Shown: in pieces, positions 1 through 15,628 of the stretch
Numbering within the stretch: the first letter of the stretch is position 1
How the letters are laid out: each line of letters opens with the position of its first letter
IMG/VR virus record: IMGVR_UViG_2724679293_000002
From: a virus
Taxonomy: Duplodnaviria > Heunggongvirae > Uroviricota > Caudoviricetes
Direction: 5' to 3' (one strand)
Length of the DNA stretch: 15,628 bases
Made by a program: the position numbers and the translations under genes
Notes under the pieces: model-generated
The model's database searches: none
Told to the model about the DNA's origin: nothing
Seen by the model: only the letters and a program-made list of their open reading frames with translations

Positions 1-1
1 T

Positions 2-628
2 GCAGATACGTCCGTTCGCACAATCTCCCTGCTGCCGGCAGCCGGAGAGGCTGCTGCGCAGGGCTGGAGCATTAAGGATGGCGGAATTCAGTTGTCAGAT
101 GGTGTATTTAAGATCACCAAGCAGAGCAATAAAACCTGGTCCCTGACGCATCCGGTGGATGACGCAATTACCCTGCTGACACAGGGCGGCAGACTGACCT
201 GTAAGTTCCGCCTGTCAGGCGCACTGACCAACAATCAGTTCGGGCTGGGGATTTATCTGTATACGGATGCTCCCGTTCCTGATGGTGTGGCGATGACGGG
301 TACCGGTAATCCGTTCCTGATGTCGTACTTCACTCAGACCACTGACGGCAGAGTGAATCTGATGCATCACAGGAAAGCCGGAAACACGAAGCTGGGGGAG
401 TTCGGCGATTACGGTAACGACTGGCAGACGCTGGAGCTGGTGTTCACCGCCGGCAGTGCCACGGTTACTCCGAAACTGAATGGAGTGGCTGGCCCGGCAT
501 TCCAGGTTATAAAAGACAGTCTGACACTGGGACTGAATGCGCTGACGCTGACGGATGTTACAAAAAATGCAGCGTATGGCGTTGAGATAGAAAGTCTGAT
601 GCTGGAGATAAATGCACCGGCAGCATAA
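2..628 (+). CDS. C-terminal fragment of a larger late-region protein of unknown function; 5' end lies outside the window
   Basis: The reading frame of the 92..628 ORF stays open back to position 2 with no stop, so the listed TTG start is probably internal. The translation is beta-rich and Gly/Thr-rich, with no motif I can assign. It sits where lambdoid phages carry cargo genes between Q and the lysis cassette. Confidence 0.5.
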   Translation, partial: ADTSVRTISLLPAAGEAAAQGWSIKDGGIQLSDGVFKITKQSNKTWSLTHPVDDAITLLTQGGRLTCKFRLSGALTNNQFGLGIYLYTDAPVPDGVAMTGTGNPFLMSYFTQTTDGRVNLMHHRKAGNTKLGEFGDYGNDWQTLELVFTAGSATVTPKLNGVAGPAFQVIKDSLTLGLNALTLTDVTKNAAYGVEIESLMLEINAPAA

Positions 629-930
629 TAAAAAAAGCCAGCGACTGACCTGAAAAAGAAGACGCTGGCTAAAAGGCCTTATATGTTTGTAGAGACTTAT
701 TTTTCACAGACAGCAATGATGCCTGTCAATATATTATCAATATGCGGATTGTTTCAGTTACAGATGCCTTATTAAGGAAAAAAACAGCCAGCACTGACTT
801 TCGGTGGAGAGGTGCTGGCTCAAAAGGATAGATGTACTTCACATGTTGCTTCTATATGGCAGTACATTTTCTGACAGACAGTGACGGATGTTGTCAAGAT
901 ATTGTGTCATTTATAACCTGAATCAGGGGA
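629..930. repeat. Two diverged tandem copies of a ~150-bp non-coding module
   Basis: Copy A (~629-780) and copy B (~779-930) align block by block: aaaaaaagccagcgactgac / aaaaaaacagccagcactgac, ctggctaaaaggcc / ctggctcaaaaggat, ttttcacagacagcaatgatgcctgtcaatatatt / ttttctgacagacagtgacggatgttgtcaagatatt. Each copy has an A-run followed by an inverted repeat. Confidence 0.6.
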
Positions 931-994
931 GGCCGGAATGTTATCTGGCATTTTTAGCAGAGCCTGAATGCCATAATCACGGCTCCCGGCGTTG

Positions 995-1030
995 GCCGTC
1001 AGTGGGTGACACTGGCGGCTTTTTTGTTTT
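995..1030 (+). terminator. Rho-independent terminator-like hairpin with T-run upstream of the holin gene
   Basis: A 10-bp stem (gccgtcagtg / cactggcggc, one G-U pair) with a 5-nt loop is followed by tttttttgtttt. Confidence 0.5.
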
Positions 1031-1075
1031 TCTTTACTTTCATTTTCTGTCGGCGGTGACGGAGACATACATCAG

Positions 1076-1282
1076 ATGGAAAAAATCACAACAGGTGTGT
1101 CATACACCACGTCAGCGGTGGGGACGGGATACTGGTTACTGCAGCTGCTGGACAAAGTCTCTCCGTCCCAGTGGGTGGCAATAGGTGTGCTGGGAAGTCT
1201 GCTGTTTGGCCTGCTGACGTATCTGACAAATCTTTATTTCAAGATTAAAGAAGATAAGCGTAAGGCTGCGAGAGGTGAATAA
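1076..1282 (+). CDS. S: Phage-21-type class II holin (pinholin), 68 aa
   Basis: The sequence [22 protein letters not shown]...[36 protein letters not shown] has two transmembrane domains and a charged C-terminus, matching my recollection of S21. A GGAG Shine-Dalgarno sits 11 nt upstream, and the gene lies directly 5' of the endolysin with a 1-nt start/stop overlap. Confidence 0.9.
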
Positions 1283-1779
1283 TGTCGCCGTCATTACGCA
1301 AGGCTGTTGCAGCTGCTATTGGTGGTGGGGCTGTTGCCATAGCGTCTGTGCTCATCACTGGTCCAGGTGGTAACGATGGTCTGGAAGGTGTCAGCTACAT
1401 ACCATACAAAGATATCGTTGGCGTATGGACTGTATGTCACGGACACACCGGAAAAGACATCATGCCCGGTAAAACGTATACCGAAGCAGAATGCAAAGCC
1501 CTCCTGAATAAAGACCTTGCCACGGTCGCCAGACAAATTAACCCGTACATCAACGTCGATATACCGGAAACAACGCGCGGCGCTCTTTACTCGTTCGTTT
1601 ACAACGTGGGCGCTGGCAATTTCAGAACATCGACGCTTCTTCGCAAAATAAACCAGGGCGATATCAAAGGCGCATGTGATCAGCTACGGCGCTGGACATA
1701 CGCTGGCGGTAAGCAATGGAAAGGGCTGATGACTCGCCGCGAGATTGAGCGTGAAGTCTGTTTGTGGGGGCAACAATGA
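1282..1779 (+). CDS. R: SAR endolysin (T4-lysozyme-like muramidase, R21 type), 165 aa
   Basis: The N-terminus carries a Gly/Ala-rich signal-anchor-release segment ([23 protein letters not shown]), followed by the lysozyme catalytic region [25 protein letters not shown]. It sits between holin and spanin genes. Confidence 0.92.
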
Positions 1780-2213
1780 GCAGGGTAACCGTTATTATCT
1801 CCGCTCTGGTTATCTGCATTATCGCCTGCCTGTCATGGGCTGTTAATCATTACCGTGATAACGCCATCGCCTACAAAGAGCAGCGCGATAAAGCCACATC
1901 CATCATCGCTGATATGCAGAAGCGGCAACGTGATGTAGCAGAACTTGACGCCAGATACACAAAGGAGCTTGCTGATGCTAATGCGACTATCGAAAGTCTC
2001 CGTGCTGATGTTTCTGCTGGGCGTAAGCGCCTGCAAGTCTCCGCCACCTGTGCAAAGTCAACGACCGGAGCCAGCAGCATGGGCGATGGAGAAAGCCCAG
2101 GACTTACAGCAGATGCTGAACTCAATTATTACCGTCTCCGAGGTGGAATCGACAAGATAACCGCGCAGGTTAACTACCTGCAGGAATACATCAGGACGCA
2201 GTGCTTAAAATAA
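1776..2213 (+). CDS. Rz: Inner-membrane spanin Rz (i-spanin)
   Basis: It starts [29 protein letters not shown], an N-terminal transmembrane domain followed by a coiled-coil-like region, as in lambda Rz. ATG 1776 overlaps the R stop (ATGA); the listed ORF start at 1764 is an in-frame GTG extension. Confidence 0.85.
1975..2160 (+). CDS. Rz1: Outer-membrane lipoprotein spanin Rz1 (o-spanin), embedded in the +1 frame of Rz
   Basis: [20 protein letters not shown] has a lipobox (VSAC), followed by the proline-rich [16 protein letters not shown]. An AAGGAG Shine-Dalgarno lies 8 nt upstream of ATG 1975; ATG 1981 is an alternative start. Confidence 0.8.
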
Positions 2214-2253
2214 TTTTAATTTCACTGAAATTTAACAAGTGACTTTCAGGAAA

Positions 2254-2280
2254 ATGCCTCGCAGATGCGGGGCATTTTTG
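2254..2280 (+). terminator. Rho-independent terminator-like hairpin after the lysis cassette
   Basis: Stem atgcctcgc / gcggggcat with loop agat, followed by ttttt. Confidence 0.6.
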
Positions 2281-2362
2281 TACCGGTATTTCACCGCGCA
2301 CCGCAGCGCACAATAAACACCGAACCTGACCCTTTGGAATGGGCCTTTGAGGATACCAGTTA

Positions 2363-2980
2363 GTGCTGGCGAGCCTCGGTGGGCTGGTTTCCTGTGCGGC
2401 AAAGGTTCATTTCAAAGAAGCAGGCAACGCCATGAATGAATTAATTGCGAATCATGACTTCGACTTTCGCCAGTTAGTTACCGCAGCAGAAGGTCAACCG
2501 GTAACTGACACCTTCCAGATTGCCAGGGCATTTGGTAAACGCCATCAGCATGTGATTAGGGCTATTAAATGTTTGAGATGTTCTGAGGAATTCTCGACAA
2601 CCCATTTTGGGGCCGTCGAGAAAATCAATGACTTAGGTATTTTTGACAAGAAACAGATTTACTACCGCATGGACTTTAGTGGCTTCGTTATGCTGGTTAT
2701 GGGATTTAACGGGGCAAAAGCCGATGCTGTTAAAGAAGCCTATATCAATGCGTTTAACTGGATGTCAGCAGAACTCCGTAAGTACAGCGAAAGTTATGAA
2801 GCAGAACGTAACGCCGTAATGCTGGAGTACATGAAAGAGAAGGATGTCGCCAGCATGTCAGGCCGTCTGCTCAATCGCTGGGGGAGAACGAAAAAACCTC
2901 AATTGCTTGCAAAGCTGGAACGTCTGGAGAGACAGGGACAGTTTTTATTACCGGGATTCGATAAAGGTATTCAAGCCTGA
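2363..2980 (+). CDS. Phage regulatory protein, Rha family (pRha domain)
   Basis: The motif FGKRHQHVIRAIKCL matches the pRha signature (FGKRH.NVLRDI) as I remember it. The start is ambiguous: GTG 2363 has a GAGGA Shine-Dalgarno 10 nt upstream (205 aa), while ATG 2432 has a weak one (182 aa). Confidence 0.75.
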   Translation: MLASLGGLVSCAAKVHFKEAGNAMNELIANHDFDFRQLVTAAEGQPVTDTFQIARAFGKRHQHVIRAIKCLRCSEEFSTTHFGAVEKINDLGIFDKKQIYYRMDFSGFVMLVMGFNGAKADAVKEAYINAFNWMSAELRKYSESYEAERNAVMLEYMKEKDVASMSGRLLNRWGRTKKPQLLAKLERLERQGQFLLPGFDKGIQA

Positions 2981-3167
2981 CACATTATGCGCTGTATCGT
3001 CGCCGTATTCCCGCATTAACCATGACCGTAGCCCGACGGGGAATTCCTTCTGCGTGAGTGTGCGGGAATAATCAAAAACGATGCACACCGGGTTTTACTG
3101 TGCTGACAGACGCAGGGTTACCCTCATAGTCGCTTTTCCGGTGCGATGGTGGAAGAAACCGGGATGT

Positions 3168-3362
3168 TCATCCATCATCACTTTGGATTGATGTATATGC
3201 TCTCTTTTCTGACGTTAGTCTCCGACGGCAGGCTTCAATGACCCAGGCTGAGAAATTCCCAGACCCTTTTTGCTCAAGAGCGATGTTAATTTGTTCAATC
3301 ATTTGGTTAGGAAAGCGGATGTTGCGGGTTGTTGTTCTGCGGGTTCTGTTCTTCGTTGACAT
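3168..3362 (-). CDS. Small ribbon-helix-helix-like DNA-binding protein (YlcI-like), 64 aa
   Basis: MSTKNRTRRTTTRNIRFPNQMIEQINIALEQKGSGNFSAWVIEACRRRL reads as a basic N-terminal arm, a beta strand (IRFP), helix A, a Gly loop and helix B. A homologous small ORF lies at the extreme right end of lambda and next to nohD in DLP12, from memory. Confidence 0.7.
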   Translation of the reverse strand: MSTKNRTRRTTTRNIRFPNQMIEQINIALEQKGSGNFSAWVIEACRRRLTSEKRAYTSIQSDDG

Positions 3363-3526
3363 GAGGTTGCCCCGTATTCAGTGTCGCTGATTTGTATTGT
3401 CTGAAGTTGTTTTTACGTTAAGTTGACGCAGATCAATTAATACGATACCTGCGTCATAATTGATTATTTGACGTGGTTTGATGGCGTAGATGCACGTTGT
3501 GACATGTAGATGATAATTATTATCAT

Positions 3527-3598
3527 TTTGCGGGTCCTTTCCGGCGATCCGACAGGTTACGGGGCGGCGACCTCGCGGGTTTTCGCTATTTATGAAAA
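3527..3598. other. cos: cos site: cosQ region and cosN, with the 12-nt cohesive end GGGCGGCGACCT at 3562-3573
   Basis: gggtcctttccggcgatccgacaggttacg | GGGCGGCGACCT | cgcgggttttcgctatttatgaaaattttccgg matches the lambda right-end/left-end junction as I recall it. Confidence 0.9.
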
Positions 3599-3609
3599 TT
3601 TTCCGGGAT

Positions 3610-3711
3610 CCATGTCCGGTTTCTCTTCAAGTTAACTATATGAAAAATATAAAAACAGGTCTTCTGTGAACCGGACATGAACAAAAAACAGACATGTAAA
3701 CCGGACATGAC
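3610..3711. repeat. cosB-position repeat array: three copies of G(A/T)AACCGGACATG(A/G), one inverted and two direct
   Basis: The core CCGGACATG occurs at 3671-3679 and 3701-3709 and as its reverse complement at 3611-3619. An A-tract-rich spacer (3624-3660) separates the inverted copy from the direct copies. No lambda R-site motif (cgtttcc / ggaaacg) is present. Confidence 0.5.
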
Positions 3712-3794
3712 CGGTTTTGTTGTGATTGTGAGGTGAGAGTTTTTGCGAGGTGAGGAGTGGCTACGCAGACTGAAGTTGCCAGGCATTTAAGTCT

Positions 3795-3800
3795 NNNNNN
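3795..3800. other. Run of six ambiguous bases (N), 8 bp upstream of the Nu1 start codon
   Basis: The sequence reads gtctnnnnnnaatgaacaATG. Confidence 0.95.
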
Positions 3801-3808
3801 AATGAACA

Positions 3809-4328
3809 ATGGAAGTCAACAAAAAGCAGCTGGCTGACATTTTCGGCGCGAGTATCCGTACCATTCAGAACTGGCAGGAGCAGGGAATGCCCGTTCTGCG
3901 GGGTGGTGGCAAGGGTAATGAAGTGCTTTATGACTCTGCCGCCGCCATAAAATGGTATGCCGAAAGGGATGCTGAAATTGAGAACGAAAAGCTGCGCCGG
4001 GAAGTTGAAGAACTGCGGCAGGCCAGCGAGACAGATCTCCAGCCAGGGACTATTGAGTACGAACGCCATCGACTTACGCGTGCGCAGGCCGACGCACAGG
4101 AGCTGAAAAATGCCAGAGACTCCGCTGAAGTGGTGGAAACCGCATTCTGTACTTTCGTGCTGTCGCGGATCGCAGGTGAAATTGCCAGTATTCTCGACGG
4201 GATCCCCCTGTCGGTGCAGCGGCGTTTTCCGGAACTGGAAAACCGACATGTTGATTTCCTGAAACGGGATATCATCAAAGCCATGAACAAAGCAGCCGCG
4301 CTGGATGAACTGATACCGGGGTTGCTGA

Positions 4329-4354
<26 letters not shown>
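3809..4354 (+). CDS. nu1: Terminase small subunit Nu1 (lambda type), 181 aa
   Basis: MEVNKKQLADIFGASIRTIQNWQEQGMPVLRGGGKGNEVLYDSAA... is a winged helix-turn-helix DNA-binding domain with an ATP-binding Lys motif. Residues L40, A92 and Q97 match the lambda Nu1 positions known from cosB-suppressor genetics. Confidence 0.95.
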
Positions 4355-8035
<3,681 letters not shown>

Positions 8036-8055
<20 letters not shown>

Positions 8056-9355
8056 TCTCCCGCATATTGCCAGCATGGCTTTTAATGAGCCGCTGATGCT
8101 TGAACCCGCCTATGCGCGGGTTTTCTTTTGTGCGCTTGCAGGCCAGCTTGGGATCAGCCGCCTGACGGATGCGGTGTCCGGCGACAGCCTGACTGCCCAG
8201 GAGGCACTCGCGACGCTGGCATTATCCGGTGATGATGACGGACCACGACAGGCCCGCAGTTATCAGGTCATGAACGGCATCGCCGTGCTGCCGGTGTCCG
8301 GCACGCTGGTCAGCCGGACGCGGGCGCTGCAGCCGTACTCGGGGATGACCGGTTACAACGGCATTATCGCCCGTCTGCAACAGGCTGCCAGCGATCCGAT
8401 GGTGGACGGCATTCTGCTCGATATGGACACGCCCGGCGGGATGGTGGCGGGGGCATTTGACTGCGCTGACATCATCGCCCGTGTGCGTGACATAAAACCG
8501 GTATGGGCGCTTGCCAACGACATGAACTGCAGTGCAGGTCAGTTGCTTGCCAGTGCCGCCTCCCGGCGTCTGGTCACGCAGACCGCCCGGACAGGCTCCA
8601 TCGGCGTCATGATGGCTCACAGTAATTACGGTGCTGCGCTGGAGAAACAGGGTGTGGAAATCACGCTGATTTACAGCGGCAGCCATAAGGTGGATGGCAA
8701 CCCCTACAGCCATCTTCCGGATGACGTCCGGGAGACACTGCAGTACCGGATGGACGCAACCCGCCAGATGTTTGCGCAGAAGGTGTCGGCATATACCGGC
8801 CTGTCCGTGCAGGCTGTGCTGGATACCGAGGCTGCAGTGTACAGCGGTCAGGAGGCCATTGATGCCGGACTGGCTGATGAACTTGTTAACAGCACCGATG
8901 CGATCACCGTCATGCGTGATGCACTGGATGCACGTAAATCCCGTCTCTCAGGAGGGCGAATGACCAAAGAGACTCAATCAACAACTGTTTCAGCCACTGC
9001 TTCGCAGGCTGACGTTACTGACGTGGTGCCAGCGACGGAGGGCGAAAACGCCAGCGCGGCGCAGCCGGACGTGAACGCGCAGATCACCGCAGCGGTTGCG
9101 GCAGAAAACAGCCGCATTATGGGGATCCTCAACTGTGAGGAGGCTCACGGACGCGAAGAACAGGCACGCGTGCTGGCAGAAACCCCCGGTATGACCGTGG
9201 AAACGGCCCGCCGCATTCTGGCCGCAGCACCACAGAGTGCACAGGCGCGCAGTGACACTGCGCTGGATCGTCTGATGCAGGGTGCCCCGGCACCGCTGGC
9301 TGCAGGTAACCCGGCATCTGATGCCGTTAACGATTTGCTGAACACACCAGTGTAA
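8036..9355 (+). CDS. C: Head maturation protease / scaffold C (ClpP/SppA-like), 439 aa
   Basis: It starts at GTG 8036 (VTAELRNLPHIASMAF...), overlapping the B 3' end by 20 nt. The listed ORF start at 7901 is an upstream open-frame extension. Confidence 0.92.
8750..9355 (+). CDS. nu3: Scaffolding protein Nu3, from an in-frame internal start within C
   Basis: ATG 8750 (MDATRQMFAQKV...) is in frame with C, corresponding to lambda Nu3. Confidence 0.8.
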   Translation: MDATRQMFAQKVSAYTGLSVQAVLDTEAAVYSGQEAIDAGLADELVNSTDAITVMRDALDARKSRLSGGRMTKETQSTTVSATASQADVTDVVPATEGENASAAQPDVNAQITAAVAAENSRIMGILNCEEAHGREEQARVLAETPGMTVETARRILAAAPQSAQARSDTALDRLMQGAPAPLAAGNPASDAVNDLLNTPV

Positions 9356-9364
9356 GGGATGTTT

Positions 9365-9697
9365 ATGACGAGCAAAGAAACCTTTACCCATTACCAGCCG
9401 CTGGGCAACAGTGACCCGGCTCATACCGCAACCGCGCCCGGCGGATTGAGTGCGAAAGCGCCTGCAATGACCCCGCTGATGCTGGACACCGCCACCCGTA
9501 AGCTGGTTGCGTGGGATGGCACCACCGACGGTGCTGCCGTTGGCATTCTGGCGGTTGCTGCTGACCAGACCAGCACCACGCTGACGTTCTACAAGTCCGG
9601 CACGTTCCGTTATGAGGATGTGCTCTGGCCGGAGGCTGCCAGCGATGAGACGAAAAAACGGACCGCGTTTGCCGGAACGGCAATCAGCATCGTTTAA
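9365..9697 (+). CDS. D: Capsid decoration protein D, 110 aa
   Basis: It starts [12 protein letters not shown], with AAGGGA 5 nt upstream of ATG 9365. Confidence 0.93.
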
Positions 9698-9717
9698 CCT
9701 TACCCTTCATCACTAAA

Positions 9718-9738
9718 GGCCGCCTGTGCGGCTTTTTT
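9718..9738 (+). terminator. Stem-loop with T-run between D and E
   Basis: gccgcctgtgcggc followed by ttttttt. It lies between two equally abundant capsid genes, so it is more likely an RNA-stability or attenuator element than a strong terminator. Confidence 0.45.
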
Positions 9739-9752
9739 TACGGGATTTTTTT

Positions 9753-10778
9753 ATGTCGATGTACACAACCGCCCAGCTGCTGGCGGCAAATGAGCAGAAA
9801 TTTAAGTTTGATCCGCTGTTTCTGCGTCTCTTTTTCCGTGAGAGCTATCCCTTCACCACGGAGAAAGTCTATCTCTCACAAATTCCGGGACTGGTAAACA
9901 TGGCGCTGTACGTTTCGCCGATTGTTTCCGGTGAGGTTATCCGCTCCCGTGGCGGCTCCACCTCTGAATTTACGCCGGGATATGTCAAACCCAAGCATGA
10001 AGTGAATCCGCAGATGACCCTGCGTCGCCTGCCGGATGAAGATCCACAGAATCTGGCGGACCCGGCTTACCGCCGCCGTCGCATCATCCTGCAGAACATG
10101 CGAGACGAAGAGCTGGCCATTGCTCAGGTCGAAGAGATGCAGGCAGTTTCTGCCGTGCTTAAGGGCAAATACACCATGACCGGTGAAGCCTTCGATCCGG
10201 TTGAAGTGGATATGGGCCGCAGTGTGGCGAACAACATCACGCAGTCCGGCGGTACGGAGTGGAGCAAGCGTGACAAGTCCACGTATGACCCGACCGACGA
10301 TATCGAAGCCTACGCGCTGAACGCCAGCGGTGTGGTGAATATCATCGTGTTTGATCCGAAAGGCTGGGCGCTGTTCCGTTCCTTCAAAGCCGTCAAGGAG
10401 AAGCTGGATACCCGTCGCGGCTCTCATTCCGAGCTGGAGACAGCGGTAAAAGACCTGGGCGAAGCGGTGTCCTATAAGGGGATGTATGGCGATACGGCGA
10501 TCGTCGTGTATTCCGGACAGTACGTGGAAAACGACGTCAAAAAGAACTTCCTTCCGGACAACACGATGGTGCTGGGGAACACTCAGGCACGCGGTCTGCG
10601 CACCTATGGCTGCATTCAGGATGCGGACGCACAGCGCGAAGGTATTAACGCCTCTGCCCGCTACCCGAAAAACTGGGTGACCACCGGCGATCCGGCGCGT
10701 GAGTTCACCATGATTCAGTCAGCACCGCTGATGCTGCTGGCTGACCCTGATGCGTTCGTGTCCGTACAACTGGCGTAA
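9753..10778 (+). CDS. E: Major capsid protein E, 341 aa
   Basis: It starts MSMYTTAQLLAANEQKFKFDPLFLRLFF; length and position match lambda gpE. Confidence 0.95.
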   Translation: MSMYTTAQLLAANEQKFKFDPLFLRLFFRESYPFTTEKVYLSQIPGLVNMALYVSPIVSGEVIRSRGGSTSEFTPGYVKPKHEVNPQMTLRRLPDEDPQNLADPAYRRRRIILQNMRDEELAIAQVEEMQAVSAVLKGKYTMTGEAFDPVEVDMGRSVANNITQSGGTEWSKRDKSTYDPTDDIEAYALNASGVVNIIVFDPKGWALFRSFKAVKEKLDTRRGSHSELETAVKDLGEAVSYKGMYGDTAIVVYSGQYVENDVKKNFLPDNTMVLGNTQARGLRTYGCIQDADAQREGINASARYPKNWVTTGDPAREFTMIQSAPLMLLADPDAFVSVQLA

Positions 10779-10780
10779 TC

Positions 10781-10810
10781 ATGGCCCTTCGGGGCCATTT
10801 TCTCTCTGTG
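10781..10810 (+). terminator. UUCG-tetraloop hairpin with U-rich tail immediately after E
   Basis: atggccc-ttcg-gggccat followed by tttctctct. Confidence 0.45.
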
Positions 10811-10819
10811 GAGGAGTCC

Positions 10820-11215
10820 ATGACGAAAGATGAACTGATTGCCCGTCTTCAGGTGCTGGGTGAGCAACTGAACCGTGATGTCAGCCTGACGGGGACGAAA
10901 GAAGAACTGGCACTCCGTGTGGCAGAGCTGGAAGAGGAGCTTGATGACACGGATGACGCTGCCGGTCAGGACACGTCTGTCAGCCCGGAAAATGCGCTGA
11001 CCGGACATGAAAATGAGGTTGTATCAGCGCAGCCGGATACCGTGACTGATACGGCTGATCTGGTCACGGTTGTGGCACTGGTGACGCTGCATACTGATGC
11101 ACTTCACGCCACGCGGGATGAGGCTGTGGCATTTGTGCTGCCGGGAACGGCGTTCCGTGTCTCTGCCGGTGTGGCAGCTGAAATGACAGAGCGCGGCCTG
11201 GCCAGAATGCAATAA
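10820..11215 (+). CDS. FI: DNA packaging protein FI, 131 aa
   Basis: It starts MTKDELIARLQVLGEQLNRD, with an acidic central linker as in lambda gpFI. Confidence 0.9.
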   Translation: MTKDELIARLQVLGEQLNRDVSLTGTKEELALRVAELEEELDDTDDAAGQDTSVSPENALTGHENEVVSAQPDTVTDTADLVTVVALVTLHTDALHATRDEAVAFVLPGTAFRVSAGVAAEMTERGLARMQ

Positions 11216-11226
11216 CGGGAGGCGCT

Positions 11227-11601
11227 GTGGCTGATTTCGATAACCTGTTCGATGCTGCCATTGCCTGCGCCGATGAAACGATACGCGGGTACATGGGAAC
11301 GTCAGCCACCATGACATCCGGTGAGCAGTCCGGTGCTGTGATACGTGGTGTTTTTGATGACCCTGAAAATATCAGCTATGCCGGACAGGGCGTGCGCGTT
11401 GAAGGCTCCAGCCCGTCCCTGTTTGTCCGGACTGATGATGTGCGGCAGCTGCGGCGCGGCGACACGCTGACCATCGGTGAGGAAAACTTCTGGATAGACC
11501 GGATTTCGCCGGATGATGGCGGAAGCTGTCATCTCTGGCTTGGGCGGGGCGTACCGCCTGCCGTTAACCGTCGCCGCTGGAAGGGGGATGTATGGCCATA
11601 A
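11227..11601 (+). CDS. FII: Head-tail connector protein FII, 124 aa (about 7 aa longer than lambda FII)
   Basis: MADFDNLFDAAIACADETIRGYMG... The frame reads ...PAVNRRR-W-KGDVWP-stop, with TGG at 11578-11580 where I recall lambda having the TGA stop. Confidence 0.85.
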   Translation: MADFDNLFDAAIACADETIRGYMGTSATMTSGEQSGAVIRGVFDDPENISYAGQGVRVEGSSPSLFVRTDDVRQLRRGDTLTIGEENFWIDRISPDDGGSCHLWLGRGVPPAVNRRRWKGDVWP

Positions 11602-12170
11602 AAGGTCTTGAGCAGGCCGTTGAAAACCTCAGCCGTATCAGCAGAACGGCGGTGCCCGGTGCCGCCGCAATGGCCATTAACCGCGTTGCTTCATCCGCGA
11701 TATCGCAGTCGGTGTCACAGGTTGCCCGTGAGACAAAGGTACGCCGGAAACTGGTAAAGGAAAGGGCCAGGCTGAAAAGGGCCACGGTCAAAAATCCGCA
11801 GGCCAGAATCAAGGTTAACCGGGGGGATTTGCCCGTAATCAAGCTGGGTAATGCGCGGGTTGTCCTTTCGCGCCGCAGGCGTCGTAAAAAGGGGCAGCGT
11901 TCATCCCTGAAAGGTGGCGGCAGCGTGCTTGTGGTGGGTAACCGTCGTATTCCCGGCGCGTTTATTCAGCAACTGAAAAATGGCCGGTGGCATGTTATGC
12001 AGCGTGTGGCCGGGAAAAACCGTTACCCCATTGATGTGGTGAAAATCCCGATGGCGGTGCCGCTGACCACGGCGTTTAAACAAAATATTGAGCGGATACG
12101 GCGTGAACGTCTTCCGAAAGAGCTGGGCTATGCGCTGCAGCATCAACTGAGGATGGTAATAAAGCGATGA
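11592..12170 (+). CDS. Z: Tail completion protein Z, 192 aa
   Basis: It starts MAIKGLEQAVENLSRIS; length and position match lambda gpZ. Confidence 0.93.
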   Translation: MAIKGLEQAVENLSRISRTAVPGAAAMAINRVASSAISQSVSQVARETKVRRKLVKERARLKRATVKNPQARIKVNRGDLPVIKLGNARVVLSRRRRRKKGQRSSLKGGGSVLVVGNRRIPGAFIQQLKNGRWHVMQRVAGKNRYPIDVVKIPMAVPLTTAFKQNIERIRRERLPKELGYALQHQLRMVIKR

Positions 12171-12562
12171 AACATACTGAACTCCGTGCAGCCGTACTGG
12201 ATGCACTGGAGAAGCATGACACCGGGGCGACGTTTTTTGATGGTCGCCCCGCTGTTTTTGATGAGGCGGATTTTCCGGCAGTTGCCGTTTATCTCACCGG
12301 CGCTGAATACACGGGCGAAGAGCTGGACAGCGATACCTGGCAGGCGGAGCTGCATATCGAAGTTTTCCTGCCTGCTCAGGTGCCGGATTCAGAGCTGGAT
12401 GCGTGGATGGAGTCCCGGATTTATCCGGTGATGAGCGATATCCCGGCACTGTCAGAGTTGATCACCAGTATGGTGGCCAGTGGCTATGACTACCGACGCG
12501 ACGATGATGCGGGCCTGTGGAGTTCAGCCGATCTGACTTATGTCATTACCTATGAAATGTGA
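12167..12562 (+). CDS. U: Tail terminator protein U, 131 aa
   Basis: It starts [18 protein letters not shown]; ATGA overlap with Z. Confidence 0.93.
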
Positions 12563-12569
12563 GGACGCT

Positions 12570-13310
12570 ATGCCTGTACCAAATCCTGTAATGCCGGTGA
12601 AAGGTGCCGGGACCACCCTGTGGGTTTATAAGGGGAGCGGTGACCCTTATGCGAATCCGCTTTCAGACGTTGACTGGTCGCGTCTGGCAAAAGTTAAAGA
12701 CCTGACGCCCGGCGAACTGACCGCTGAGTCCTATGACGACAGCTATCTCGATGATGAAGATGCGGACTGGACTGCGACCGGGCAGGGGCAGAAATCAGCC
12801 GGAGATACCAGCTTCACGCTGGCGTGGATGCCCGGAGAGCAGGGGCAGCAGGCGCTGCTGGCGTGGTTTAATGAAGGTGATACCCGTGCCTATAAAATCC
12901 GCTTCCCGAACGGCACGGTCGATGTGTTCCGTGGCTGGGTCAGCAGTATCGGTAAAGCGGTGACGGCGAAGGAAGTGATCACCCGCACGGTGAAGGTCAC
13001 CAATGTGGGACGCCCGTCGATGGCAGAAGATCGCAGCACGGTCACAGCGGCAACCGGCATGACCGTGACGCCTGCCAGCACCTCGGTGGTGAAAGGGCAG
13101 AGCACCACGCTGACCGTGGCATTCCAGCCGGAAGGCGCAACCGACAAGAGCTTCCGTGCGGTGTCTGCGGATAAAACAAAAGCCACCGTGTCGGTCAGTG
13201 GTATGACCATCACCGTGAAAGGTGTTGCTGCAGGCAAGGTCAACATTCCGGTCGTATCCGGTAATGGTGAACTTGCTGCGGTTGCAGAAATCACTGTCAC
13301 CGACAGTTAA
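12570..13310 (+). CDS. V: Major tail tube protein V, 246 aa, with C-terminal Ig-like domain
   Basis: ATG 12570 ([22 protein letters not shown]...) has a GAGGA Shine-Dalgarno upstream. The listed start at 12540 is an upstream extension. Confidence 0.93.
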
Positions 13311-13325
13311 TCCGGAGAGTCAGCG

Positions 13326-13748
13326 ATGTTCCTGAAAACCGAATCATTTGAACATAACGGCGTGACCGTCACGCTTTCTGAACTTTCAGCCCTGCAGCGT
13401 ATTGAGCATCTCGCCCTGATGAAACGGCAGGCAGAACAGGCGGAGTCAGACAGCAACCGGAAGTTTACAGTGGAAGACGCCATCAGAACCGGTGCTTTTG
13501 TGGTGGCGATGTCCCTGTGGCATAACCATCCGCAGAAGACAAAGCAGCCTTCCATGAATGAAGCCGTTAAACAGATTGAGCAGGAAGTGCTTACCACCTG
13601 GCCCACAGAGGCAATTTCTCATGCTGAAAACGTGGTGTACCGGCTGTCCGGTATGTATGAGTTTGTGGTGAATGATGCCCCTGAACAGGCAGAGGACGCC
13701 GGGCCTGCAGAGCCTGTTTCTGCGGGAAAGTGTTCGACGGTGAGCTGA
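13326..13748 (+). CDS. G: Tail assembly chaperone G, 140 aa
   Basis: It starts MFLKTESFEHNGVTVTLSEL. Confidence 0.92.
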   Translation: MFLKTESFEHNGVTVTLSELSALQRIEHLALMKRQAEQAESDSNRKFTVEDAIRTGAFVVAMSLWHNHPQKTKQPSMNEAVKQIEQEVLTTWPTEAISHAENVVYRLSGMYEFVVNDAPEQAEDAGPAEPVSAGKCSTVS

Positions 13749-14164
13749 GTTTTGCCCTGAAACTGGCGCGCGAGATGGGGCGACCCGACTGGCGTGCCAT
13801 GCTTGCCGGGATGTCATCCACGGAGTATGCCGACTGGCACCGCTTTTACAGTACCCATTATTTTCATGATGTTCTGCTGGATATGCACTTTTCCGGGCTG
13901 ACGTACACCGTGCTCAGCCTGTTTTTCAGCGATCCGGATATGCATCCGCTGGATTTCAGTCTGCTGAACCGGCGTGAGGCTGACGAAGAGCCTGAAGATG
14001 ATGTGCTGATGCAGAAAGCGGCAGGGCTTGCCGGAGGCGTCCGCTTTGGCCCGGACGGGAATGAAGTTATCCCCGCTTCCCCGGATGTGGCGGACATGAC
14101 GGAGGATGACGTAATGCTGATGACAGTATCAGAAGGGATCGCAGGAGGAGTCCGGTATGGCTGA
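13326..14164 (+). CDS. T: Tail assembly chaperone G-T fusion made by programmed -1 ribosomal frameshift
   Basis: The slippery heptamer G GGA AAG lies at 13724-13730 near the end of G; the -1 frame continues as the 13730..14164 ORF (VFDGELSFALKLAREMG...). Confidence 0.85.
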
Positions 14165-15628
14165 ACCGGTAGGCGATCTGGTCGTTGATTTAAGTCTGGA
14201 TGCGGCCAGATTTGACGAGCAGATGGCCAGAGTCAGGCGTCATTTTTCCGGTACGGAAAGTGATGCGAAAAAAACAGCGGCAGTCGTTGAACAGTCGCTG
14301 AGCCGACAGGCGCTGGCTGCACAGAAAGCGGGGATTTCCGTCGGGCAGTATAAAGCCGCCATGCGTATGCTGCCTGCACAGTTCACCGACGTGGCCACGC
14401 AGCTTGCAGGCGGGCAAAGTCCGTGGCTGATCCTGCTGCAACAGGGGGGGCAGGTGAAGGACTCCTTCGGCGGGATGATCCCCATGTTCAGGGGGCTTGC
14501 CGGTGCGATCACCCTGCCGATGGTGGGGGCCACCTCGCTGGCGGTGGCGACCGGTGCGCTGGCGTATGCCTGGTATCAGGGCAACTCAACCCTGTCCGAT
14601 TTCAACAAAACGCTGGTCCTTTCCGGCAATCAGGCGGGACTGACGGCAGATCGTATGCTGGTCCTGTCCAGAGCCGGGCAGGCGGCAGGGCTGACGTTTA
14701 ACCAGACCAGCGAGTCACTCAGCGCACTGGTTAAGGCGGGGGTAAGCGGTGAGGCTCAGATTGCGTCCATCAGCCAGAGTGTGGCGCGTTTCTCCTCTGC
14801 ATCCGGCGTGGAGGTGGACAAGGTCGCTGAAGCCTTCGGGAAGCTGACCACAGACCCGACGTCGGGGCTGACGGCGATGGCACGCCAGTTCCATAACGTG
14901 ACGGCGGAGCAGATTGCGTATGTTGCTCAGTTGCAGCGTTCCGGCGATGAAGCCGGGGCATTGCAGGCGGCGAACGAGGCCGCAACGAAAGGGTTTGATG
15001 ACCAGACCCGCCGCCTGAAAGAGAACATGGGCACGCTGGAGACCTGGGCAGACAGGACTGCGCGGGCCTTCAAATCCATGTGGGATGCGGTGCTGGATAT
15101 TGGTCGTCCTGATACCGCGCAGGAGATGCTGATTAAGGCAGAGGCTGCGTTTAAGAAAGCAGACGACATCTGGAATCTGCGCAAGGATGATTATTTTGTT
15201 AACGATGAAGCGCGGGCGCGTTACTGGGATGATCGTGAAAAGGCCCGTCTTGCGCTTGAAGCCGCCCGAAAGAAGGCTGAGCAGCAGACTCAACAGGACA
15301 AAAATGCGCAGCAGCAGAGCGATACCGAAGCGTCACGGCTGAAATATACCGAAGAGGCGCAGAAGGCTTACAAACGGCTGCAGACGCCGCTGGAGAAATA
15401 TACCGCCCGTCAGGAAGAACTGAACAAGGCACTGAAAGACGGGAAAATCCTGCAGGCGGATTACAACACGCTGATGGCGGCGGCGAAAAAGGATTATGAA
15501 GCGACGCTGAAAAAGCCGAAACAGTCCGGCGTGAAGGTGTCTGCGGGCGATCGTCAGGAAGACAGTGCTCATGCTGCCCTGCTGACGCTTCAGGCAGAAC
15601 TCCGGACGCTGGAGAAGCATGCCGGAGC
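14157..15628 (+). CDS. H: Tail tape-measure protein H, N-terminal part; continues beyond the window end
   Basis: ATG 14157 (MAEPVGDLVVDLSLDAARFDEQMARVRRHF...) opens a frame with no stop to the window end. It is absent from the ORF track because it has no stop. Translation is Ala/Gln/Lys-rich and coiled-coil-like. Confidence 0.9.
   Translation, partial: MAEPVGDLVVDLSLDAARFDEQMARVRRHFSGTESDAKKTAAVVEQSLSRQALAAQKAGISVGQYKAAMRMLPAQFTDVATQLAGGQSPWLILLQQGGQVKDSFGGMIPMFRGLAGAITLPMVGATSLAVATGALAYAWYQGNSTLSDFNKTLVLSGNQAGLTADRMLVLSRAGQAAGLTFNQTSESLSALVKAGVSGEAQIASISQSVARFSSASGVEVDKVAEAFGKLTTDPTSGLTAMARQFHNVTAEQIAYVAQLQRSGDEAGALQAANEAATKGFDDQTRRLKENMGTLETWADRTARAFKSMWDAVLDIGRPDTAQEMLIKAEAAFKKADDIWNLRKDDYFVNDEARARYWDDREKARLALEAARKKAEQQTQQDKNAQQQSDTEASRLKYTEEAQKAYKRLQTPLEKYTARQEELNKALKDGKILQADYNTLMAAAKKDYEATLKKPKQSGVKVSAGDRQEDSAHAALLTLQAELRTLEKHAG

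Follow-up and report, generated by a model that had tools for sequence, protein, structure and literature searches.

The stretch of viral DNA considered here (IMG/VR record IMGVR_UViG_2724679293_000002, 15,628 nucleotides (nt), hereafter the window) opens inside a gene. In frame 2 of the plus strand no stop codon intervenes between the window edge and a TAA at 626-628, with a second TAA directly following, giving an open-reading frame (ORF) of 208 sense codons plus the stop. An initial annotation made from the window sequence alone had described an open-ended ORF ending at position 628 and encoding at least 209 amino acids (aa); the frame stands, but the length is 208 aa, the figure of 209 having counted the stop codon. 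Both peptides quoted from it (GLGIYLYTD and GDYGNDWQTLELVFTAGSATVTPKLNG) are found in the translation of ORF 2-628.

All 208 residues recur unchanged as residues 409-616 of a 616-aa protein of phage 434 (UMO75335.1, CPT_434_71, annotated "SASA family carbohydrate esterase"), and they are also identical to the C-terminus of WP_000023271.1 from an Escherichia coli chromosomal prophage. At the nucleotide level, positions 1-1300 of the window share 100% identity with Escherichia phage 434 (OL657226.1), a match which covers the 3′ end of CPT_434_71. Pfam assigns DUF6645 alone to the fragment (PF20350, 68.4 bits against a gathering cut-off of 27), and NCBIfam assigned no family to the protein. As the translation is identical to the C-termini of annotated 616-aa proteins and its DUF6645 score lies above the cut-off, the ORF is not a chance reading frame. 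It is essentially certain that it encodes the C-terminal domain of NanS-p, a prophage sialate O-acetylesterase, comprising the last few residues of an inter-domain linker and the whole of a C-terminal, lectin-like jelly-roll domain (Table 1). NanS-p itself is already known, with GenBank and RefSeq annotation, a Pfam domain, a crystallised homologue and a biochemically characterised enzyme family.

Table 1 Features at the start of the window, from nanS-p to the first lysis genes
Feature	Position	Strand	Evidence or remark
3′ end of nanS-p, codons 409-616 and stop	2..628	+	Translation identity, 6YP6 match, Foldseek
DUF6645 (PF20350) core, fragment residues 59-169 (full-length 467-577)	176..508	+	Pfam
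Non-coding spacer, esterase stop to holin start	629..1075	.	No credible ORF, no Rfam match
Intrinsic terminator, 11-bp stem with 7 G-C pairs, then T-run	994..1030	+	-21.6 kcal/mol; annotated in 434
Class II holin (pinholin), first gene of the lysis cassette	1076..1282	+	434 and L005 annotation
Signal-arrest-release (SAR) endolysin (RrrD-type lysozyme)	1282..1779	+	434 and L005 annotation

Domain architecture and fold of the esterase

With Pfam matches to DUF1737 (residues 4-49), SASA (66-262) and DUF6645 (467-577), the full-length protein of 434, which shares every residue of the overlap with the window, has the three-domain architecture of NanS-p. Residues 60-379 match the E. coli NanS/YjhS structure (PDB 3PT5, E=1e-122), and the catalytic serine S73 (block I, GQS73N) and histidine H359 (block V, RPTH359) align with this structure, at residues which we take to be Ser19 and His301 of NanS. 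The catalytic core (residues ~60-380), DUF1737, S73 and H359 are all encoded upstream of the window. That no catalytic motif had been recognisable in the fragment is thereby borne out, and none is seen because the window starts at the end of the inter-domain linker, ~30 residues past the core, between …TPSGPS and ADTSVRT…. This linker between core and jelly roll is long, flexible, of low complexity and rich in Pro, Ser and Gly. The N-terminus of the full-length protein (MSIKHYDVVRAASPSDLAEK…) is hydrophilic and carries no signal peptide; the protein would therefore need phage lysis to leave the cell.

Residues 421-613 match PDB 6YP6, an entry named "NanS-p" (E=1e-29). Two papers (PMC10462455, PMC8065619), both citing Franke et al. 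2020 J Struct Biol 212:107596, trace this entry to vb_24B_21, the NanS-p of Shiga toxin (Stx) phage φ24B, of which it covers residues 423-645, the C-terminal domain. The early guess that the fragment might be a binding module belonging to a bigger enzyme, such as a NanS-p-like esterase, is exactly borne out by the Pfam and PDB matches of the full-length protein.

A first alignment of the family (A1) was contaminated by fragments and frameshifted entries, and a cleaned alignment (A2) was used instead; the AlphaFold2 model of the fragment was built from a cleaned alignment of nine closely related sequences. The model is of moderate confidence (predicted local distance difference test (pLDDT) 66, predicted template modelling score (pTM) 0.70) and almost all beta, with 13 strands and two short helices. 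In a Foldseek search of the PDB, the top match was 6YP6 (E=3e-17, template modelling (TM) scores 0.78/0.75, 31% identity), followed by the Emp46p/47p L-type lectins and the ganglioside-binding HC domains of clostridial neurotoxins. Matches further down the ranking were to the sialic-acid-binding domain of the Vibrio cholerae sialidase (TM 0.59/0.63), to Akkermansia mucin sialidases and to calreticulin and legume lectins; all that rank after 6YP6 are concanavalin A (ConA)-like domains that recognise carbohydrate. The fragment had been described as beta-rich and resembling a sandwich or lectin-like domain; the model and the Foldseek ranking, with 6YP6 ahead of the lectins, confirm this description, and the fragment is predicted to be a ConA-like jelly-roll domain (DUF6645).

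Position in the late operon

The proposed location, that at which lambdoid phages carry late-region cargo, is found in phage 434 and in prophage L005, which is 99.9% identical to window 1-3606. In both, nanS-p lies between Q, with its promoter and terminator pR′/tR′, and the holin gene, and the same location between Q and holin is seen in Stx1 phages and 933W. Q, pR′ and the upstream part of the gene lie outside the window and are taken from these near-identical genomes. In 434 and L005, an 82-type Q comes first; a σ70-like promoter overlaps its stop codon, and ~35 nt further on there is a terminator. Two small membrane-protein genes follow and then, just in front of the ribosome-binding site of nanS-p, a second strong terminator; after nanS-p come the spacer, a third strong terminator and the holin gene. 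The promoter, tR′ and pre-nanS-p terminator segments of L005 are exact matches to 434, and L005 also keeps the plus-strand terminator before the holin gene. The third terminator sits just before the holin ribosome-binding site, and late transcripts must read through it. Because the path to the lysis genes runs through nanS-p and three intrinsic terminators, we infer late, Q-dependent expression, and the locus is probably a Q-antiterminated late operon. In published work, mRNA of nanS-p homologues rises by 1-2.4 log with mitomycin C (PMC10462455), and the late genes, including nanS-p, are induced by norfloxacin, with nanS-p among the most induced (PMC8065619). We rejected an independent nanS-p promoter, as a crude scan between the preceding terminator (L001 4665-4683) and the nanS-p start codon showed no σ70-like site directly upstream, which is weak negative evidence.

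The order of nanS-p and the lysis cassette is as initially described, but the two are not directly adjacent, as a 447-nt non-coding spacer intervenes. This spacer is a diverged tandem duplication of a ~150-nt unit (626-778 against 776-935), in which 101 of the 130 aligned positions are identical, with an alignment score of 87, shuffled sequences giving 39±6. At the start of each unit stands a strong hairpin (636-670, 786-820) with a T-run after it on the minus strand, the arrangement of a terminator in the antisense direction, and the 434 record annotates minus-strand terminators in the spacer. A small RNA or riboswitch was rejected, as window 1-3900 gave no Rfam match in the spacer at E<=1 and one chance-level match elsewhere. 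A hidden gene was likewise rejected: ORFs wholly inside the spacer reach 25-38 aa and none is supported, and two others of 98 and 53 aa, which start or end in the spacer, extend into the holin gene or towards it and seem to be spurious.

Upstream in 434 (L001 977-2143) and L005 (1968-3142), a truncated fragment resembling lambda Q stands before a lipid A deacylase (LpxR) gene on the minus strand, and YlcG and the intact 82-type Q come after this gene. The LpxR gene is thus a second piece of cargo, and the late regulatory region bears the mark of a replaced module.

Divergence and distribution of the C-terminal domain

For comparison between subtypes we used the 645-aa NanS-p of 933W (L0105), whose C-domain (group CTR1) is of the crystallised type. 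Identity to L0105 is ~56% in DUF1737, ~70% in the catalytic core and ~35% in the C-domain. Four aromatic residues of vb_24B_21 (Y510, Y515, Y540 and F611) have been proposed to bind sugar (PMC10462455), and they align here with F488, Y493, F518 and L584, so that three of the four are aromatic, the alignment at the fourth position being uncertain at 35% identity. The DUF6645 core spans F488, Y493 and F518, the residues aligned to the proposed aromatic platform, and L584 lies just outside it. The RPTH variant of block V has been reported, among Stx2a phages, for phage 86 only (PMC10462455).

This is a small family: an exhaustive HMMER scan of 1.84 billion representative proteins returned 58 matches at E<=1e-3, mostly E. 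coli fragments. Divergent DUF6645 proteins pair the domain with SASA and/or DUF1737. One of them, P0069, is without an esterase core: two DUF1737-like repeats in tandem precede DUF6645, after which comes a further domain of ~100 aa at the C-terminus, common also to P0054, P0061 and P0076. Short in-frame fusions of DUF1737 to DUF6645 also occur in E. coli (P0014, P0021 and P0050), and that in P0014 joins residues 1-44 to 460-616. These short proteins may be either remnants of deletions or minimal proteins of the type "capsid anchor plus lectin". Since DUF6645 occurs in proteins without an esterase core, it behaves like a module in its own right, and this suits a binding function better than a strictly catalytic-accessory one. 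Two proteins with SpaA repeats (P0085, P0090) were discarded as non-homologous, their matches being prealbumin-like pilin repeats with weak E-values.

Relation of the window to phage 434 and prevalence of the gene

We rejected the possibility that the window is phage 434 itself. Identity of 100% is confined to positions 1-1300, a 1.1-kb segment of the window is absent from 434, the cosB regions differ and the head genes share ~98% identity. In blocks, identity to 434 is 98.8% over 1-1892, there is no match over 1893-2987, and identity is 99.1% over 2988-3561 and 98.0% over 3801-15628. The segment without a 434 counterpart (1893-2987) carries a gene for a Rha-family transcriptional regulator (ORF 2363-2980) after the spanin genes, and its place in 434 is taken by a minus-strand gene for an Iss/Bor-like lipoprotein. 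The window has the cosN site (GGGCGGCGACCT) in its interior, at 3562-3573; its genes hence run in the order of a prophage or concatemer. The cosB-like region that follows (3574-3800) gave no megablast match to 434 or L005, and a run of six N (masked bases) occupies 3796-3801. A literature search found no paper on the phage 434 genome.

The best matches of the window are to E. coli chromosomal prophages. At least 80% of window 1-4000 is present in 217 of 5,426 complete E. coli genomes, and the full-length esterase gene, at a coverage of at least 80%, in 1,392 of the same 5,426. The gene has 564 records at >=99% identity, and one genome holds it in up to 15 places. In an E. coli O103 genome (H94, NZ_CP193491.1 3704673-3707836), an IS3-family element lies inside an otherwise 100%-identical nanS-p and leaves separately annotated DUF1737 and DUF6645 proteins.

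Proposed function and alternative explanations

We propose that the window domain is the glycan-tethering module of a late-expressed, lysis-released sialate O-acetylesterase, a reading that we hold at a probability of roughly 80% and of which carbohydrate binding is the weakest link. On prophage induction, Q-modified RNA polymerase starting from pR′ would read through tR′ and the two further terminators, so that nanS-p would be transcribed together with the lysis genes, and NanS-p, having no signal peptide, would leave the cell at phage lysis. The core would then remove O-acetyl groups from 5-N-acetyl-9-O-acetylneuraminic acid (Neu5,9Ac2) and mucin sialoglycans, making them usable by E. coli, whilst the non-catalytic window domain would bind carbohydrate and hold the enzyme on its glycan substrate. 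Activity as Neu5,9Ac2 and mucin esterases has been reported for the NanS-p alleles of EDL933 and O104:H4 (PMC8065619), and the allele described here presumably acts likewise. With NanS-p, E. coli both pathogenic and commensal can draw on the O-acetylated sialic acids of gut mucin; in Stx phages the enzyme is co-expressed with Shiga toxin.

Several points weigh against this proposal. Carbohydrate binding by the C-domain of any NanS-p is so far only a proposal (PMC8065619), and our literature search found no activity data for the exact 616-aa subtype, nor any paper linking z3342 to nanS-p. The C-domain subtype described here shares only ~35% identity with the crystallised domain, one of the four proposed binding residues (F611) aligns with the non-aromatic L584, and confidence in the structure model, built from nine closely related sequences, is only moderate (pLDDT 66). 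The window itself lacks Q, pR′ and the upstream part of the gene, for which near-identical genomes stand in. Finally, the φ24B homologue is reported to be virion-bound, with its C-domain clipped off (preprint 10.64898/2026.04.10.717836), and by analogy NanS-p may not be a simple free enzyme.

This last observation leads to the alternative that survives best, although we consider it unlikely: NanS-p could be a virion-displayed adhesin, anchored to the capsid by DUF1737, with the lectin-like domain as its outermost, mucus-binding tip, released by autoproteolysis of the linker. Its role would be mainly one of structure or decoration and not that of lysogen cargo, which would be compatible with its identity as an esterase. 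In φ24B, the NanS-p (gp84) is reported to be abundant in virions, with a hexamer of its DUF1737 seated as a plug in the hexon at the centre of each T=9 capsid facet and Tyr42 as the anchoring "tooth"; fresh virions are reported to carry its C-terminal jelly roll and to shed it through autoproteolysis when stored (10.64898/2026.04.10.717836). The full-length protein here also possesses a DUF1737 with a tyrosine (Y41) in the aligned anchor loop, and DUF6645 is fused to DUF1737 without an esterase in P0069 and in the three short E. coli fusions. This DUF1737 is 56% identical to that of 933W. However, the anchor loop is three residues shorter than in 933W and the equivalence of Y41 to Tyr42 is uncertain. 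The head genes of the window encode a gpE-like major capsid protein, 99.7% identical to that of Lambda-named phage isolates, and a gpD-like decoration protein, hence a lambda-type head and not a partner capsid of the φ24B type (T=9, with a central hexon per facet). On a T=7 lattice, the icosahedral threefold axis, the place at which gp84 binds, is not occupied by a hexon, and this geometry speaks against a capsid anchor on the lambda-type head. The evidence for display, moreover, comes from a preprint on one phage.

The distribution of the subtypes across head modules bears on the same question. The 616-aa subtype is found with the lambda-type gpE/gpD head (434 L003, and the window) and with the head of YYZ-2008 (645-aa major capsid protein; L006, 13095-15032), whilst the 645-aa subtype is found in the T=9 podoviruses 933W and φ24B (933W L004). 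The occurrence of the 616-aa subtype with unrelated heads implies that the esterase gene assorts independently of the head module, and in YYZ-2008 this subtype accompanies a third, unrelated head, which speaks against a partnership with one particular capsid. The decoration role reported for φ24B touches on the possibility, raised in the initial annotation, that the full-length ORF is a standard structural gene, yet the cargo interpretation stands, as the gene carries no standard structural annotation and the phage here is a different one.

Docking of NanS-p on λ-type capsids is, in our estimate, unlikely. We regard as doubtful the fuller version, in which NanS-p would be displayed through DUF1737 on the T=7, gpD-decorated capsid of 434-like phages, with the lectin-like domain as a cleavable tether to mucus or glycans and a ligand specificity unlike that of 933W and φ24B. 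If true, DUF1737 would be a capsid anchor across unrelated head modules and the classic 434 virion would carry a glycan-binding enzyme. One esterase subtype associated with unrelated heads offers a clean test of whether the capsid decoration reported for φ24B is general or capsid-specific.

A second alternative, which we think improbable, is that the domain is no independent binding module but is integral to the catalytic machinery, contributing to active-site shape, substrate specificity or folding. The φ24B preprint has the catalytic domain and the jelly roll each playing a part in the enzyme's activity (10.64898/2026.04.10.717836), and the C-domain is the most variable part of NanS-p (~35% identity against ~70% for the core; compare the CTR groups of PMC10462455), as would be expected of a determinant of specificity. 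Chromosomal NanS, however, is reported to be active (PMC8065619), and its 337-aa chain in 3PT5 matches only residues 60-379. The domain is also separated from the core by the long, flexible, low-complexity linker, is reported to be cleaved off (10.64898/2026.04.10.717836) and occurs in proteins without the esterase core.

The idea that the domain targets bacterial surface glycans (O-acetylated O-antigen or capsule), so that the enzyme would aid phage adsorption or prevent re-adsorption to lysed cells and not serve on host mucin, was raised in a review of Stx phages (PMC8065619), and high variability such as that of the C-domain tends to be a property of receptor-binding modules. In the review, however, it is purely hypothetical. 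The core is 70% identical to characterised sialate esterase alleles, the closest solved relative is the sialic-acid esterase NanS, and the nearest structural analogues beyond 6YP6 include binders of sialic acid and gangliosides, which makes a surface-glycan target highly improbable. That the fragment is a pseudogene remnant, with its upstream part disrupted in the source of the window, can be set aside as very improbable: the IS3 insertion in H94 splits the gene in one genome, and in-frame deletion forms and many frameshifted fragments are present in databases, but the 208 visible codons are identical to intact alleles, the 616-codon gene is intact in both L005 and phage 434, and 1,392 genomes hold at least 80% of it.

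Comparison with known systems

The NanS-p proteins of Stx phages (933W L0105/z1466 and φ24B vb_24B_21/gp84) likewise combine DUF1737, a SASA/NanS core and DUF6645, and their genes likewise lie between Q/pR′ (and stx, where present) and the holin gene S. Relative to these, the core of the protein described here is ~70% identical, and the C-domain is homologous (E=1e-29) and of the same jelly-roll fold. The two differ in length (616 aa here against 645 aa in 933W) and in catalytic block V, which reads RPTH here, as in the phage 86 variant, against RSSH or RASH in Stx-phage NanS-p. The phages differ too: that of the window is without stx and has a lambda-type siphovirus head, whereas 933W and φ24B have a T=9 podovirus head.

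Closer still is the yjhS allele of Stx1 phages (YYZ-2008 gp42, Stx1a phages), which shares ~96% protein identity, and 99% DNA identity over window 1-1270. The allele of the Stx1a phages is annotated as a 9-O-acetyl-N-acetylneuraminic acid deacetylase (yjhS) and directly follows stx1AB, and the flanking spacer and holin gene are the same in 434, in the prophage encoding WP_000023271.1 and beside the Stx1-phage allele. The 434/window allele differs from the Stx1-phage allele at 22 amino acids (L001:4778-6628 against L002:3778-5628), 14 of which fall within full-length residues 2-59, a region that covers the C-terminal half of DUF1737 and the first linker. Such clustering suggests, from the aligned sequences, either a recombination junction or faster divergence of a putative capsid-anchor region.

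Chromosomal NanS/YjhS (3PT5) is homologous to the catalytic core only, as it is without DUF1737 and the lectin-like domain, and nothing inside the window is homologous to it. The lectin domain of the V. cholerae sialidase (2W68), the A. muciniphila sialidases, the neurotoxin HC domains and Emp46/47 share the beta-sandwich of the window domain (Foldseek probability 1.0, TM 0.45-0.59). At 10-16% identity and with a large root-mean-square deviation, this is a likeness at the level of the fold and not family membership, so the binding sites of these jelly rolls are not transferable to NanS-p. The likeness extends to domain organisation, as these sialidases and toxins likewise attach a non-catalytic, glycan-binding domain to an enzyme or toxin.

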